Shown: positions 24,935 through 62,716 of the stretch, one piece after another
Numbering within the stretch: position 1 is the stretch's first letter
Layout: every line of letters starts with the position of its first letter
IMG/VR virus record: IMGVR_UViG_2609460125_000009
Source: a virus
Taxonomy: Duplodnaviria; Heunggongvirae; Uroviricota; Caudoviricetes
DNA length: 64,000 nucleotides
Strand: one strand, 5' to 3'
Made by a program: the position numbers and the translations under genes
The notes under the pieces: model-generated
Seen by the model: the letters and a program-made list of their open reading frames with translations, nothing else
What the model was told of the DNA's origin: nothing
Databases searched by the model: none

Positions 24935-27274
24935 ATGGCAAAAGGAAAATCCGCACTGGCACTTGCTCTGAAAAAGAAAATCGGTAGCAACGACGAAATT
25001 CAGAAAGTAACTCATTGGATTGACACAGGCTTTCCTCCGTTAAACAAAGCTATTTCCGGTCGTTACGATGGCGGTTTCCCATGTGGTCGTATCGTAGAAG
25101 TATTCGGGCCACCAAGCGCGGGGAAATGTGTTACCGCAGACACCATGCTGCTGACGGAGCGTGGAATGGTAACAGTGAAAGAGTTGTTTGAGATTGAAGG
25201 GTACAAAGCGACATGCACTACTCGCGATGTAGAGCATAACGTTGGACTCATCAATGAAAATGGCGTGATAGAGAAGACCTCACACCTGACATGGAACAAC
25301 CGTCGCAAATTCAAGCGTATTAAGCTGGCATCAGGCGGTTATATCGAGGCTACGTTCCGTCACCCAATCCGTGTGGTTGACGACTTAGGTAATGTCGTCT
25401 GGCGACATGCTGAAAAAATCAGTGTAGGCGACACGATTCCTTCAATGGTTGGCACACATCAATTCGGCGATCAGCACCTGGATGCCAATATCGCAAAACT
25501 GATGGGCTATTTAATTGCTGACGGATACGTGGCCTCTGAAAATTCAGTGAATTTTTCTAACACAGATCCTTTCATCAAGGATGAGTACTACCGCCTCATT
25601 TCGCTGGTATCAGACAAGATGCCAGTTACGAGAAAACATAACGGCTCGGAAGACCATGTGCTGTTTAGCAAAGAGGTGCGTTCGCTGCTTTTTAAAGAAT
25701 ATGGTCTGGAGTATGAGAAAGCTGCTGGCAAGCAGGTTCCGTTGAGTGTGCGTCGCGCCAATAGCGAGGCTCAAATTGCATTCCTTCGCGGCTACTTTGA
25801 GCTGGAATGCCACGTCAATGATGGTCGCTGCATTGAGGTTGTGAGCGCGAGTGGGCTGCTGCTACAGCAAATTCGCCTCATGCTCCTGAATCTGGGGATT
25901 ACGTCAACTATCTCTGAAAAACACGTCGCGGGTTATGAAAATACATATTACCGGCTGTCATTCAGTGGCTCTAATTACGACCTTTTTCTGTCAACGATTG
26001 GTTTCGAATCTCCGGCACGTTTATCAGTGGCAACCAAACGGGACATTGGTTTTGACCGCACTTACTCAGGCTATGTTCCGCACATCAGCGGCTTAGTGAA
26101 ATCACTCTACGAGTCGCTCACCAAGACCACCCGTGAAGACTACGCTCTGGTAGACCACGTTATTGGCCGCGGCGATCGTGTCGGAATAGACAAACTGCGA
26201 GAAATCTATGTCTCCTTCATTGGCAGAAAGAATCGTTTTAACGAGCATCTGTTTGCACAACTGGCAGCGGTAATTGGCTCTAACTTGTTCTACGACGAAG
26301 TCGTGGCTATTGAGGAAGGTGAAGCACCAACGTTCGACGTAGCGATGCCGGAAACACACTCTTTCTGGTCTAACGGGATTATCAGCCACAACACATTCCT
26401 TGCAACAGCAGCGATGATCTCCGCTCAAAAACAAGATGGTCTGGCGGTATTCCTCGATCATGAAAACAGTTTTGACGTTGGCCTGGCTGTAGCCAATGGC
26501 CTGAACGCAGATGAGGATGACGGTCAGTGGGTATACAAGCAGCCAGATACCTTCGAAGACTCTGTAGAGTTGATCGGCACAATACTTAAATTGGTTCGTG
26601 ATGAAGAGCTTATCCCCGAATCAGCACCTATCTGTATCGTGGCTGACTCTCTTGCGTCTATGGTTCCGAACTCCAAAGCCGAGAAGTTCGAAAAGATGGC
26701 TGAAGGCACAGCCAAAGACAAAGATCAGCTAAACATGAACGACAATACGGCACTGGCTCGTGCGACGAGTGCGAACTTCCCTACTCTGGCTTTGTGGGCA
26801 CGCAAATACAACGCCTGCATCATCTTCTTGAATCAGGTTCGCACAAAAATCGGTGTAATGTTTGGCGACCCTACTACGTCGCCAGGTGGAGATTCACCGA
26901 AGTTCTACGCTTCTGTACGTATCCGTCTTGGTGCATCGGTGATGAAGGATGGTAAAGAGAAGATCGGCCAGGACGTAGGCGCAGAATGCATCAAAAACAA
27001 AGTTGCACCACCGTATGGCAAATGCACCTGGAAATTCTACTTCGATCCTACTCGTGGCCTCGACGTTATCGAGTCGCTCGTCGAGTACATGCTGGAAGAA
27101 GGATACCTGCCAAAGAACGCCAGCGGTCGAGTAGAAATTGGTGACAAGAAATACACCAAATCACAGATCGTCGAGATGTATCGGGAGAAGCCACTAGCTG
27201 AAATCATTGCGGCTTTACAGGCAATCGACGACCGGAGATCAAAAGACAATCCCACCGAGTCAGTAGAAGAGTAA
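24935..27274 (+). CDS. RecA-family recombinase interrupted by an intein
   Basis: Extein: GPPSAGK|TFLATAAM P-loop and FLNQVRTKIGVMFGDPTTSPGGDSPKFYASVR, closely matching the RecA core; 422-aa insertion between K64 and T. Confidence 0.85.
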   Translation: MAKGKSALALALKKKIGSNDEIQKVTHWIDTGFPPLNKAISGRYDGGFPCGRIVEVFGPPSAGKCVTADTMLLTERGMVTVKELFEIEGYKATCTTRDVEHNVGLINENGVIEKTSHLTWNNRRKFKRIKLASGGYIEATFRHPIRVVDDLGNVVWRHAEKISVGDTIPSMVGTHQFGDQHLDANIAKLMGYLIADGYVASENSVNFSNTDPFIKDEYYRLISLVSDKMPVTRKHNGSEDHVLFSKEVRSLLFKEYGLEYEKAAGKQVPLSVRRANSEAQIAFLRGYFELECHVNDGRCIEVVSASGLLLQQIRLMLLNLGITSTISEKHVAGYENTYYRLSFSGSNYDLFLSTIGFESPARLSVATKRDIGFDRTYSGYVPHISGLVKSLYESLTKTTREDYALVDHVIGRGDRVGIDKLREIYVSFIGRKNRFNEHLFAQLAAVIGSNLFYDEVVAIEEGEAPTFDVAMPETHSFWSNGIISHNTFLATAAMISAQKQDGLAVFLDHENSFDVGLAVANGLNADEDDGQWVYKQPDTFEDSVELIGTILKLVRDEELIPESAPICIVADSLASMVPNSKAEKFEKMAEGTAKDKDQLNMNDNTALARATSANFPTLALWARKYNACIIFLNQVRTKIGVMFGDPTTSPGGDSPKFYASVRIRLGASVMKDGKEKIGQDVGAECIKNKVAPPYGKCTWKFYFDPTRGLDVIESLVEYMLEEGYLPKNASGRVEIGDKKYTKSQIVEMYREKPLAEIIAALQAIDDRRSKDNPTESVEE
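25127..26392 (+). mobile_element. intein with LAGLIDADG homing-endonuclease domain inside the RecA P-loop
   Basis: Begins with Cys directly after GPPSAGK, ends ...SHN followed by Thr; internal LAGLIDADG-type motifs MGYLIADGYV and FLRGYFELECHV. Confidence 0.75.
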
Positions 27275-29801: not shown

Positions 29802-30013
29802 TGGCATTAACACTGGCAGGTCTGGAAATCGAGAAAACAAGCGGCTACTGGCGTGCTAAGGGTTTCAAGCAGCCTGGCATTCTTGAGCGTCTGGAACGTG
29901 AAGATGGGTATATCGTCCACCAGCGGCGTGAATGGCGTATGTACGATCCAGAAACAGGAAAACTGACTACAAAAGCCGGAACACTTTGGGGCCTGTTGAA
30001 GAAAATACACTAA
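29801..30013 (+). CDS. hypothetical protein (70 aa)
   Basis: ORF in track; overlapping stop/start. Confidence 0.45.
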   Translation: MALTLAGLEIEKTSGYWRAKGFKQPGILERLEREDGYIVHQRREWRMYDPETGKLTTKAGTLWGLLKKIH

Positions 30014-30491
30014 TAGCACCAACCACTGCGGTGAGTAGCCAGCTCACCGCATTCGTATCAGCTCATTATCCACTGTGGTCTGCAGTCCTCTCTTCCTACA
30101 TATCTGCTAACCACTGTAGCGAGTAGACAGCCTTTCATTCGCATCAAACAACCACTATGGTGAGTATTGGAGTGAGATGTACAGCGGGTATCCACTATGG
30201 TGAGTAAGCCTTTGCTGTTTTCAGTGGATATCCACTCGCCACAGTGGATACGCTCAAAGATGAGGGCGACAACAACCACTATAGACAGTAAATTTTCCAA
30301 GATACCCAGTGACCACTAACCTCGCAGCCCTTGTTTCATCAGTGTTAGTGATCACTAACATTTGATTCAGTATTTGCATTCTACTGCCTACAGTGGTTAT
30401 CAACAGATAACGATACTCACTATAGTGGATAGCGAATTACAGATATAAGTAAGGCTCACTACAGTGGATAGTGAGCCTTACTACTAACTAC
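30011..30491. repeat. iteron array downstream of rep (incA-like): ~10 copies of the palindromic core CCACT(A/G)T(A/G)GTGG in both orientations
   Basis: e.g. aaccactatggtgagta (30141, 30181), accactatagacagta (30265), ctcactatagtggatag (30406), ctcactacagtggatagtgag (30445). Confidence 0.7.
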
Positions 30492-30501
30492 AGTGGTTGG
30501 G

Positions 30502-31557
30502 CTATTTGCGAGTCTTTGCCTTGCGCAACTCTTCGAGAAGCGCCAGTTCTTCTTTACTCAACATGACCATTTTGCCTTCTTTTTCGTCAGGCACAACGTC
30601 GATAATGTCATCTTGATTCTCATCTGGGAGGCTATATTCCGTCTCATCATTATCGATTTTTGTTGATATTTGTGCCTGGCGTAACTTTGGCCGCCTATAG
30701 TGGATGACGAAGTAGACCGAGTTTCCGCGCTTAACTTCCGTGTAATCGAGATATCCTATCTCTCGCAGCTGTTCCATAGCCTTTCTTACCGTCGCATTCT
30801 GAGTAATAGTGCGACTTGTCAGATTAAGTCTGGCGCGTAAACGGGCTAGTGATATTGGTGCCGGATCAGGCGGCAAACTTTCAATAAAAGTATAAAGCGC
30901 CTGAGCGGATTCTTTTCTTGAGAGTTCGTTTATAGCCCGGAGTTGCAGAAGAACCTTTTTGTCGAACTGGTAGAGTTCGAAAATCTTGGGATCTGCTTTC
31001 AGTTCGACCGTATCGTGCTTGACACTATATTTTGCCGTTTGCACAAGATGCGTTACGTAAAACTCATCAGAGCCTTTGCTACGGAACGAGATGGTATTTG
31101 TGGCAATACGGCTTAGCGAACTGTCCAGGCGTTTGCGTAACTTCGCTGATGACCTGGCGGTCGGAATGCCACACAGCCTTACAAACTCAACGAACGGCAA
31201 CGTGACAGTATCGCCAACGACCTTGTGTTTGGCAAACGCGTGGATTATTCCCACCCACGTTTTAAAGTCGTTATCCATATCAAGCCGAAGGCCAGAGATC
31301 CTTATGTCTTCGTACCCTTCGGCTTTTGCCAGAGACAGCTGTTTGAGTTCAGCAGAGGCATCCATAGAGACCATTTGCCCCTTTCTTCCTCTGGATGTCG
31401 ATTTCAGCGTCGGAACGAAGAGGCCCAGACGCATCAAAGCAACAGGCTGAACAGTGTTATTAGTGTTAGGAACCAACGTAACAACTTCGCCTGTCTTTTT
31501 ATCTGTTTCTGAAAATGCTTCAACGATCGCTATGTTTTTATTGCCGTTTTCGCTCAT
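30502..31557 (-). CDS. iteron-binding plasmid replication initiator (RepA/Rep_3-like)
   Basis: 351-aa protein flanked on both sides by iteron arrays, adjacent to DnaA boxes and GATC cluster; family assignment from architecture and general sequence character. Confidence 0.7.
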
Positions 31558-31602
31558 TCCAAATGTCTCTTGTTATTCGACGGCTTTGGTGGCCTTTGCT
31601 GA

Positions 31603-31722
31603 TTACAGTGGATAGTAGCACTCATCACAGCGGTTATCCTACCGTCTATAGTGGTTTTTCTCCTCTCTATAGTGGTTGCTTTGCTCCCTATAGTGGATTA
31701 TTCGCTCTCTATAGTGGATATC
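31603..31722. repeat. iteron array upstream of rep (incC-like): direct repeats ctctatagtgg at ~20-bp spacing
   Basis: ctatagtggtttttc, ctctatagtggttgc, cctatagtggatta, ctctatagtggatat. Confidence 0.75.
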
Positions 31723-31740
31723 GATCATGTCTGAAGGCAG

Positions 31741-32220
31741 ATGGCGCAACGGTTTGAGGTGGGCGGGGATCTTATTGGGTCTTTATGGGTCTCTTTGGTT
31801 CTCTTTGTGATCTGAATTACTGGATCGGGCCTGTGGATAAAAATCAGAGGATTTCAAGAACAGGTAACTCTACTCTTCTGTGGATATTTAAGGACATAAG
31901 AATCATGACTAAGAGTAGAGTTTAAAATATATCTATGTATATCAGTATGTTAATGAAGAATTAAGTCATTAAGTTATCCATAAAAGACAATGTGCTCTAC
32001 TCTCTACAGTGGATATATACAGCTCTCCAGAGTGGTTGTTTTACTCTTCATAGCGGTTATTCAGCTCTCTACAGAGGTTTCTTTGCTCTCCATAGTGGAT
32101 GGCAACACCCTTTCAGACCAGTAACCGCAACGGCTAGAGGCGATCGGGGATCTCTTTGGATCTTCTATTTGATCTTACTTGGGATCTCTTATTTGGATCT
32201 ATCCAGTGGATAACTGGGAT
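31741..32220. promoter_or_regulatory. origin-like region: two copies of a module (GCAACGG.TAGAGG..GGGGATCT + GATC cluster + DnaA box) separated by a second iteron array (31995-32102)
   Basis: DnaA boxes tgtggataa (31832-31840, perfect TTATCCACA on the other strand), near-matches at 31879-31887, 31974-31982, 32205-32213; six GATC within 32143-32200. Confidence 0.6.
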
Positions 32221-32300
32221 AAGTAAAACAGGCAAATGCAGATTAAGGTATGCCTAATGAGTTATCGTAGCATCGGCCAATAACTACTGAAAAAACGATT

Positions 32301-48111: not shown

Positions 48112-48705
48112 ATGATTGCAGCCGAAAAAATCAAACAGCGAAAGCGCGACAACTCTCTTCGTGACCTCTGGAGAACACCTGACTGGCTGTTTTCTGCCAT
48201 TCAACGTTATCTTGGAGTGACATTTGATGTTGACGTTGCCTGCAACAAGGACAATGCAAAGCTGCCTAATTTCATAGGCGTTGAGCGTGATGCTTTGAAA
48301 TCTGAATGGGGACAGCCAGGTACAATTGCCTTCCTCAATCCACCCTACTCCAAAATCTCCCCCTGGATTGATGCGGCTATACGTGAGCAGGCTCGCGGAG
48401 TTACAACAGTGATGCTAATTCCTCAATCCCTCGATACAAAGTGGTATGAGCGTGCAACAGAGTGTGCGAATGAGACGATTATTCTGTCTGGTGGCCGCGT
48501 AGCGTTTGTCGAGCCTGACGTCAATTTGGGTCAGGTAGAAGTAAACATCAACCCCGGTGGCAGTATGCTCGTTGTTTTTCGAGGATTTTGTCAGGACGCT
48601 GGGCACTCTATAAGCAAGATCCCTTTGGACGTCATGAAAAGTCTGGGAGGGTATGATCCTGCGAATGTGATCAGGAAAAAAAGACCATCAAAGAAGGCTG
48701 CTTAG
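48112..48705 (+). CDS. DNA N6-adenine methyltransferase (phage Dam-like)
   Basis: Catalytic NPPYS motif and overall organisation of the small phage N6-MTase family. Confidence 0.7.
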   Translation: MIAAEKIKQRKRDNSLRDLWRTPDWLFSAIQRYLGVTFDVDVACNKDNAKLPNFIGVERDALKSEWGQPGTIAFLNPPYSKISPWIDAAIREQARGVTTVMLIPQSLDTKWYERATECANETIILSGGRVAFVEPDVNLGQVEVNINPGGSMLVVFRGFCQDAGHSISKIPLDVMKSLGGYDPANVIRKKRPSKKAA

Positions 48706-61590: not shown

Positions 61591-61616
61591 GGTGGTGCAT
61601 TGCACCACCTTTTTAT
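61591..61616 (+). terminator. hairpin terminator between the umuD'-like gene and mrp
   Basis: ggtggtg-cattg-caccacc then tttttat. Confidence 0.55.
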
Positions 61617-62716
61617 CACACTGCGCGGAATGCGATTTCGCCAGGTATTACTTCACCTTGCCAATACATTTGGGCAGCAACGCGATCTGCGAGGTCACGA
61701 TAAATAGCCGTAAATTCGCTATCTGGACGACTAATAACGGTTGGTGTTCCGTTATCCAGATCTTCACGAAGAGAGATATGAAGTGGCATTTGGCCTAACA
61801 ACTGCGTGTTGTATTTCTCGGCCAGTTTCTGTGCGCCACCGGTGCCAAAAATTGGCTCGTGATGACCGCAGTTACTGCAAATATGCACACTCATGTTTTC
61901 GACGATACCTAGTACCGGCACTTCGACTTTTTCGAACATCACAATGCCTTTCTTCGCATCGATCAGCGCGATGTCTTGCGGCGTAGTTACCACAACCGCA
62001 CCAGTTACAGGAATGTTCTGCGCCAGCGTCAATTGAATATCACCAGTGCCCGGCGGCATATCGAGAACGAGATAGTCCAGATCAGGCCACAGTGTTTCCT
62101 GCAACATCTGCATCAGCGCCTTGCTGGCCATCGGTCCACGCCACACCATTGCATTGTCGTCGGTGACCAGATAACCAATAGAGTTGGTTGCCAGGCCATG
62201 AGACATGATAGGTGCCATGTGAGTACCGTCCGGTGAGGTTGGACGTTGGTTTTCCGCGCCCAGCATGGTTGGAATTGATGGACCATAGATATCGGCATCC
62301 AAAATACCAACTTTCGCACCTTCAGCAGCCAAAGCCAGTGCCAAGTTTACTGCTGTGGACGATTTGCCTACACCGCCCTTGCCTGAGCTTACGGCGATAA
62401 TATTCTTAACACCATTAATGCCTGGTTGGTTTTTGACGCGCTTAAGCGTGGCAATGTTGTACGACAGCTTCCAGTCAATAGCCTTTGCGCCAGTGATACG
62501 GAGCAGATCACCACTACATTGCTCTTTCAGGTCTTCAAAAGGCTTATTCCACACGAAAGGCATGATTAGTTCGACATGCAGTGTGTCATCCATCAACGCA
62601 ACATGGTGTAACGCTTTAAGCGTAGTCAGGTTGTGTTTCAGGGTTGGGTGCTGAAAATTAGCCAGCGTACCGGCTACCATTGCTCTCAGGGCATCCGGCG
62701 ATTTGGACTCGCTCAT
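61616..62716 (-). CDS. mrp: Fe-S cluster carrier ATPase Mrp/ApbC
   Basis: Near-identical to E. coli Mrp over its length (SSGKGGVGKSSTAVNLALALA ... CSNCGHHEPIFG). Confidence 0.95.
   Translation of the reverse strand: MSESKSPDALRAMVAGTLANFQHPTLKHNLTTLKALHHVALMDDTLHVELIMPFVWNKPFEDLKEQCSGDLLRITGAKAIDWKLSYNIATLKRVKNQPGINGVKNIIAVSSGKGGVGKSSTAVNLALALAAEGAKVGILDADIYGPSIPTMLGAENQRPTSPDGTHMAPIMSHGLATNSIGYLVTDDNAMVWRGPMASKALMQMLQETLWPDLDYLVLDMPPGTGDIQLTLAQNIPVTGAVVVTTPQDIALIDAKKGIVMFEKVEVPVLGIVENMSVHICSNCGHHEPIFGTGGAQKLAEKYNTQLLGQMPLHISLREDLDNGTPTVISRPDSEFTAIYRDLADRVAAQMYWQGEVIPGEIAFRAV

Follow-up and report, generated by a model that had tools for sequence, protein, structure and literature searches.

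In the annotated replicon of phage P1, the parts are ordered as parS-parB-parA, incA (9 iterons), repA, incC (5 iterons at 21-22 bp spacing), five Dam sites and DnaA boxes. Molecules on which one initiator serves several iteron clusters or origins are known as well, such as R6K with its alpha, beta and gamma origins and RK2 with 5+3+1 iterons in oriV; unlike the locus studied here, they do not repeat one full origin cassette in tandem, and their initiators come from other branches of the family. Here we analysed the replication locus within a 64,000-nucleotide stretch of Caudoviricetes DNA (record IMGVR_UViG_2609460125_000009; the whole stretch is hereafter called the window), for which a preliminary description had proposed the incC-repA-incA layout of P1/RepFIB-type replicons. 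The homology of RepA, the order of the parts and the DNA alignment of one of its origin modules bore this layout out. Whereas P1 possesses one oriR and 9 downstream iterons, the locus possesses 12 downstream iterons and a ~240-bp oriR cassette (iterons, G+C-rich spacer, heptamers and DnaA box) in two tandem copies ~400 bp apart. Tandem duplication of a whole oriR cassette seems to be undescribed; no description of the iterons or of the doubled origin of this replicon was found in the searchable literature, although an earlier one may exist.

The sequence matches allow us to propose, with considerable confidence, that the locus is the plasmid-maintenance replicon (that of the low-copy plasmid-prophage) of an IncFIB-typed phage-plasmid of the SSU5/pHCM2/pMT1 group, in the lineage of pLF82 'Cyrano', and a true homologue of P1 oriR-repA-incA. 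The region is 99.3% identical to the Escherichia coli LF82 phage-plasmid Cyrano (pLF82) and 83% identical to Salmonella phage SSU5, and dozens of plasmids of about 105-125 kb match it at 99-100% identity. The locus overall is ~80% identical to SSU5, pHCM2 and Yersinia pestis pMT1, and the 743-bp region with the two modules matches Y. pestis pMT1, Salmonella Typhi pHCM2, and Enterobacter, Citrobacter and other E. coli plasmids at 75-81% identity, with a coverage of at least 97%. Among 5426 complete E. coli genomes, 91 (1.7%) carry the replicon, on a plasmid in every case; it is full-length in 90 of these carriers, and in the remaining one it is split by the start of the record. The plasmid NZ_CP058309.1 (99.9% identity to the locus) is typed as IncFIB and non-mobilizable by MOB-suite, and IncFIB is also assigned to pMT1, pHCM2 and the Enterobacter relatives. 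The replication gene of SSU5 is entered as IncFIB in typing tools (10.1101/2025.09.12.675607). Judged by these matches, the replicon itself is already known and catalogued. Since its class is ordinary and catalogued, what is gained here is the refinement of a known system and not a new one.

The iterons were mapped with a 20-nucleotide (nt) weight matrix built from the repeats (consensus TCTACTCTCTACAGTGGTTA). The results revealed 24 sites of 17-29 bits between 30020 and 32101, whereas no other part of the window scored above 13.7 bits. Of the 24 sites, 12 lie 3′ of repA in mixed orientation, 1 lies inside the gene, and 6 and 5 form direct repeats upstream of it. The pattern CTMYAGTGGWT, with at most one mismatch, occurs 29 times against 5.15 ± 2.33 expected, a count reached in 0 of 100 shuffles, and 20 of the 29 matches lie inside 30068-32211. 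The initiator gene and the two upstream modules, proximal and distal to it, consist of the following parts:

30502-31557, minus strand: repA, 351 amino acids, an iteron-binding initiator of the Rep_3 family with WH1 and WH2 (open reading frame, Pfam and match to P1 RepA).
31595-31720, plus strand: proximal incC-like array of six direct iterons starting at 31595, 31617, 31638, 31659, 31680 and 31701 (17.5-26.0 bits); the iteron half of origin copy 1 and, by analogy, a presumed operator at which RepA would cover the promoter of its own gene.
31721-31764: proximal G+C-rich spacer, with GCAACGG at 31746-31752.
31765-31826: proximal heptamer block, with GATC at 31768, 31809 and 31823 only.
31832-31840, minus strand: proximal DnaA box TTATCCACA, a perfect consensus (TTATACACA in SSU5, pMT1 and pHCM2).
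31841-31995: variable centre between the modules, 72% A+T, the least stable duplex of the locus.
31996-32101, plus strand: distal array of five direct iterons starting at 31996, 32019, 32040, 32061 and 32082 (20.9-29.2 bits), the iteron half of origin copy 2.
32102-32141: distal G+C-rich spacer, with GCAACGG at 32127-32133, aligning with the spacers of P1 and of single-origin relatives.
32142-32199: distal heptamer block, with 6 GATC (Dam) sites 7-13 bp apart.
32205-32213 and 32214-32222, minus strand: distal DnaA boxes, TTATCCACT and then the degenerate TTATCCCAG.

The preliminary description had placed the two direct arrays at 31603-31722 and 31995-32102, and had noted two GCAACGG...GGGGATCT modules with GATC clusters and DnaA boxes. 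All of these were recovered, the spacings of the proximal iterons being 22, 21, 21, 21 and 21 bp and the two GCAACGG modules (31745-31783 vs 32126-32164) showing 79% identity over 39 nt. In both copies the iterons are followed by the spacer with GCAACGG, then by G(G/A)TCT heptamers and lastly by the DnaA box; the last iteron and the GATC of GGGGATCT are 48 nt apart in either copy, compared with 47 nt in P1. The modules are unequal, with 6 GATC in the distal one and 3 in the proximal heptamer block, whose other three repeats read GGGTCT, GGGTCT and GGTTCT. The distal cluster (6 sites in 58 bp vs 0.26 expected; Poisson 4e-7) is the densest in the window, and all six of its sites are invariant in six lineages. 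The distal heptamer block is also a local stability minimum beside the G+C-rich spacer, as in P1, and by analogy with P1 it is predicted to be the site of strand opening and of sequestration by SeqA.

RepA was assigned to the Rep_3 initiators by a profile search, in which Rep3_N (1.3e-10, 42.2 bits, cut-off 22.4) and Rep3_C (1.3e-4, 22.6 bits, cut-off 21.1) both exceeded the curated Pfam cut-offs and placed the protein in the iteron-binding family; its reading frame coincides with the Rep gene proposed earlier. In tblastn comparisons, RepA was 47.5% identical to RepA of P1 and P7 over residues 40-293 (E 1e-71), and a second run gave 47.9% (E 4e-76). Queries against NCBIfam and against PDB sequences gave no match. 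An acidic C-terminal extension of ~60 amino acids that ends in a helix (30502-30680), with a weak, sub-threshold Pfam match to T4_y05I_C, is absent from P1 RepA and common to RepA and all the non-P1 relatives examined.

Four features of the P1-type family are present, namely a Rep_3 initiator, a 21-bp direct array 5′ of repA, an origin core (here twice) and a mixed downstream array, and the order of parts is like that of P1 except that the window lacks par genes. The spacer, heptamers and DnaA boxes of the distal module align with P1 oriR at 68% identity, and the 21-mer TTGGATCTATCCAGTGGATAA (32193-32213) is identical in P1 oriR. A nearest-neighbour stability profile of P1 shows a weak heptamer block beside a very stable spacer, and the distal module reproduces this pattern. 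The iterons, on the other hand, are unrelated in sequence (TCTACTCTCTAYAGTGGWTA here vs GATGTGTGCTGGAGGGAAA in P1), and the consensus TCTACTCTCTACAGTGGTTA showed no resemblance to the P1 iterons that define IncY specificity; binding specificity and incompatibility should therefore differ from those of P1. Klebsiella SSU5-like phage-plasmids, E. coli pEC881_2 and Cronobacter pCS1 share the neighbourhood (a cra-like gene, repA, the origin and an ASCH-like gene), and their Dam/DnaA block is 68-70% identical to the distal module, but their RepA is only 45-46% identical, their iterons are of the type ACCGCTGACAGCATA, and a single oriR lies directly upstream of repA. In two of these records, the RefSeq 'RepB family' coding sequence of 405 amino acids (L009:1752-2969, Klebsiella pR48_3; L010:1773-2987, pEC881_2) starts too far upstream and traverses the iterons; counted from the conserved start MSTKNKK..., the protein has 365-366 amino acids. 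RepFIB replicons (the P307/F type and the P1-like phages SJ46 and RCS47) represent a different branch of the family, with RepA ~44% identical and iteron arrays flanking repA; in SJ46 the upstream gene and repA are only ~300 bp apart, space enough for one module.

Old and widespread, the duplication is shared by six diverged lineages, all of which carry the two modules. The divergence of the modules in the SSU5 clade was compared with that at the fourfold-degenerate sites of repA. Against 0.31 at these synonymous sites, the divergence was 0.12 for the proximal iterons, 0.08 for the proximal heptamers, 0.04 for the proximal DnaA box (31827-31845), 0.10 for the distal iterons and 0.115 for the distal heptamers, and the proximal heptamer block was near-invariant across the six lineages. 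The centre between the modules, at 0.27, was close to neutral. Both copies thus evolve 2.5-4 times slower than synonymous sites, which indicates that both are functional and that the proximal module is no decaying relic despite the loss of half its GATC. These results make it possible that the two are equivalent, redundant origins which both fire with RepA and DnaA and either of which suffices, for each copy has all the parts and is under purifying selection, and the spacer geometry is the same. P1 origin function needs its GATC sites, and the absence of three of them from the proximal copy of this clade speaks against such equivalence.

The variable centre contains one-mismatch DnaA boxes at 31879-31887 and 31974-31982, and its A+T content is 72% in this lineage only, compared with 56-60% in relatives. 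A conserved unwinding element was considered here and rejected as a general feature, because the AT-richness is lineage-specific and the sequence evolves nearly neutrally. In another reading, the proximal module, lying beside repA as in P1, is the sole origin, and the distal one acts as an additional locus of negative control or incompatibility, matching incA on the upstream side. The six proximal iterons, four of them with the exact core CTATAGTGG, the perfect proximal DnaA box adjoining the weakest duplex of this lineage, and the conservation of the proximal heptamer block and DnaA box, the highest of all segments, would suit such an origin. This reading is unlikely, however, given that the AT-rich centre is peculiar to the lineage, that a mere iteron sink needs neither six invariant GATC nor a conserved spacer and DnaA boxes, that P1 oriR and the single origins are matched better by the distal module, and that several relatives lack a complete proximal module.

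The distribution of the modules was surveyed with one genome per species, which yielded 80 loci (RepA 62-91% identical), 52 of them evaluable with AGTGG-type iterons. Two arrays were found in most of the 52, in Kluyvera, Buttiauxella, Yersinia, Rahnella, Phytobacter, Erwinia, Pantoea, Cedecea, Xenorhabdus and other genera. A module counted as complete if it had a DnaA-like box, 4 or more units and 3 or more GATC; by this definition the distal module was complete in 46 and the proximal in 22 of the 52 loci. In 12 loci either the proximal GATC cluster or the entire proximal array was missing, and in 7 of these only the distal module was complete (Entomohabitans, Scandinavium, Pseudescherichia, Phytobacter, Franconibacter, a Tolumonas metagenome-assembled genome and locus L063); the distal module had decayed in 1. 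Natural variants with the distal module only, in several genera, or with the proximal only (locus L065, a Buttiauxella metagenome-assembled genome) are what redundant origins would allow, and L065, along with the strong conservation of the proximal core in this clade, keeps that reading alive; the strong asymmetry of the losses, 12 loci vs 1, counts against it.

Replicons with AGTGG-type iterons have two modules, and relatives with other iteron types have a single P1-like module 5′ of repA, as in the Klebsiella SSU5-like phage-plasmids, pEC881_2, pCS1 and a Kosakonia conjugative plasmid; sister Pantoea megaplasmids with TAYAGTGAAC iterons also have a single module. Pantoea agglomerans pAR1aB (RepA 67% identical) was considered as an unduplicated ancestor and rejected, since two complete modules were found in it. 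The matrix of module identities was ambiguous between Pantoea and the SSU5 clade as to one or several duplication events. In two Pantoea loci (L038 and L057), both upstream arrays share the variant iterons AGCGG and ATCGG position by position, while the downstream iterons keep AGTGG; the two upstream arrays thus make up a single functional class, to which the downstream control array does not belong. It is conceivable that the two arrays belong to one composite origin, in which RepA bound to both would loop out the ~280 bp between them as a single unit of initiation or of handcuffing in cis; RepA-mediated looping between iteron arrays is known in P1, and both arrays are direct, of the same orientation and retained in most relatives. 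We consider this quite unlikely, as the distal array starts anywhere from 214 to 650 nt from repA among relatives, the intervening sequence is near-neutral, and relatives with a single module exist.

Two modules also occur on non-phage plasmids of Pantoea, Rahnella and Erwinia, whose RepA is 62-77% identical. This bears on a division of labour between plasmid maintenance by one module and lytic-phase replication by the other, which might be expected of an element that is a phage-plasmid inducible by ciprofloxacin (PMC9928086). The same dual layout on these large plasmids, and the same RepA iterons in both modules, make such a division very improbable.

Taken together, the preliminary description posed the right alternatives, either two origins side by side or one origin with a copy-control locus. 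The sequence of the locus alone does not decide between them; comparison favours the distal copy as primary and shows that both copies are under selection. The distal copy (31996-32222) would probably, if only by a little, be the primary P1-like origin dependent on Dam and DnaA, and the proximal copy (31595-31840) would then always be kept for its iterons (operator/control) and act, in this clade, as an accessory or second origin less dependent on Dam. Three comparative results favour this assignment: the better match of the distal copy to P1 oriR and the single origins of relatives (68-70% identity, vs 59-64% for the proximal copy), its six invariant GATC with the P1-like stability profile, and the asymmetric losses among relatives. 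Several points weigh against it. Conservation in the SSU5 clade is highest in the heptamer block and DnaA box of the proximal module, as would suit an operator and an active origin alike; L065 is the sole locus that keeps only the proximal module, so that this copy may suffice alone; and the mean matrix scores of the two upstream arrays are 23.0 and 24.1 bits, so comparable that weaker distal iterons, an idea considered earlier, had to be rejected. The completeness calls of the survey depend on a weight matrix derived from this same window and on a simple pattern for the DnaA box. No data on replication, footprinting or origin mapping were found for the replicon, and the consensus scan did not place the repA promoter, so the operator role of the proximal iterons is an analogy with P1.

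The region in front of repA was inspected with respect to this promoter. The repA leader is conserved, and the candidate signals were as follows:

31558-31594, minus strand: repA leader (5′ untranslated and ribosome-binding region), divergence 0.09 vs 0.31 at repA synonymous sites.
31724-31697, minus strand: promoter match of the consensus scan at the proximal iterons, no better than 9/12, not kept in SSU5 or pMT1.
31636-31641, minus strand: TAGGAT hexamer at the position of the -10 of P1, with no good -35.

Within the AT-rich centre, TTAACA-16-TATATT (10/12, 31926-31953, minus strand) is the best sigma-70-like match of the region; it faces the proximal module and repA, and neither SSU5 nor pMT1 retains it.

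Downstream of repA, where a mixed-orientation array had been described at 30011-30491, 12 iterons were mapped, six per strand, together with a further site within repA and a palindrome:

30020-30499, both strands: downstream incA-like control array of 12 iterons (18.6-27.6 bits).
30020, 30067, 30108, 30149, 30189 and 30273, minus strand: its six minus-strand iterons (weight matrix).
30211, 30231, 30380, 30412, 30451 and 30480, plus strand: its six plus-strand iterons (weight matrix).
30344-30359: perfect 16-bp palindrome GTTAGTGATCACTAAC with a central GATC, within a ~100-bp iteron-free gap of the array.
30687-30706, plus strand: iteron-like site in the repA coding sequence, over the HYRRPK codons (17.1 bits; left out of matrix building).

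The four downstream iterons closest to repA are oriented as in the upstream arrays, like P1 incA. SSU5, pMT1, pHCM2, Enterobacter and CT29 retain this map of the array, with copy numbers of 12-15; between lineages (L003 and L005-L008 vs the window) the number varies through gain or loss of outward-facing copies ~40 bp apart. In Pantoea rwandensis (L038), the iterons downstream of repA form head-to-head inverted pairs. The site at 30687-30706 was seen in all six SSU5-clade genomes examined and had no Pantoea counterpart at a 14-bit threshold. It contains a rare AGG Arg codon (AGA in CT29), and it may be either a real intragenic RepA site or a by-product of protein conservation.

The iteron core CCACTATAGTGG had also been described as a perfect palindrome, a claim that did not hold: this sequence has zero occurrences on both strands. 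The perfect 12-bp palindromic core was rejected also because all 6 symmetric pairs around the CTAYAG centre were present in 0 of the 24 iterons, 5 of the 6 in one iteron, and 3.1 of 6 on average; the iterons hold only a weak, partial dyad. The 10-bp palindrome CACTATAGTG has a single occurrence, in one iteron, at 30418. A 12-bp palindrome GTGGATATCCAC at 30224-30235 arises where the iterons at 30211 and 30231 abut, and many iterons have a 3′ half (AGTGGATA) similar to a DnaA box, the first box of P1 being CAGTGGATAA.

With regard to its closest relatives, the locus carries the same replicon as the IncFIB-typed SSU5, pHCM2, pMT1(pFra) and pLF82, with RepA 91-92% identical to that of SSU5, pMT1 and CT29 and the same iteron map. 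This lineage differs from the SSU5/pMT1/pHCM2 group by the AT-rich centre between the modules and by 12 downstream iterons vs 13-15 there. Its distal DnaA box is that of P1, whereas other members have TGTGAATAA. The 16-bp palindrome at 30344-30359 is confined to this lineage among the IncFIB SSU5-type members and was not found in SSU5, pMT1, pHCM2, Enterobacter or CT29.

No par genes adjoin the replicon, in agreement with the preliminary description: tblastn with ParA and ParB of P1 found nothing in the 64-kb window. In P1, parA-parB-parS lies directly downstream of incA, whereas the flanks here are small phage genes. A P-loop ATPase of 366 amino acids (61616-62716, minus strand) is annotated in Cyrano as 'septum site-determining protein MinD' (CYRAN_99). 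It was rejected as a partition ATPase, being Mrp/ApbC-like and adjoining a copy of the methionyl-tRNA synthetase gene metG; in sequence, the mrp-metG-like pair resembles captured chromosomal DNA and not a partition system. The element also encodes a Dam-family N6-adenine methyltransferase (48112-48705, plus strand; PF05869, E 2.5e-38), which fits an origin controlled through GATC sites. Another gene (24935-27274, plus strand) encodes a RecA-like recombinase of 779 amino acids that is interrupted by an intein/homing-endonuclease segment, its relatives being annotated as hint-domain protein, LAGLIDADG endonuclease or RecA.

By analogy with P1, RepA monomers would bind the 21-bp-spaced iterons, and host DnaA at the box on the outer edge would act with RepA to open the adjacent GATC-heptamer block. 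Re-initiation would be gated by Dam methylation and SeqA. On the repA-proximal iterons, RepA would repress its own promoter, and the 12 downstream iterons would limit the copy number, which is ~5.5 per cell for Cyrano (PMC9928086), through titration and handcuffing. Tentatively, one entire clade within the P1 family, which comprises the SSU5/pHCM2/pMT1 phage-plasmids and many plasmids of Pantoea, Rahnella, Erwinia and Kluyvera, may run on two complete tandem origins with one initiator, both of them active: the distal GATC-rich and gated by Dam/SeqA, the proximal GATC-poor in this lineage and largely escaping sequestration. If this is true, the pairing of two origins in cis by RepA would be an added layer of copy control, undescribed for iteron plasmids.

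This replicon maintains a widespread family of phage-plasmids, present in 1.7% of complete E. coli genomes and including S. Typhi pHCM2 and the Y. pestis virulence plasmid pMT1, some members of which bear resistance genes. The copy control of the replicon therefore sets the dosage of clinically relevant cargo. The conserved tandem copy of a complete P1-type origin represents a natural experiment in origin redundancy and sub-functionalisation.

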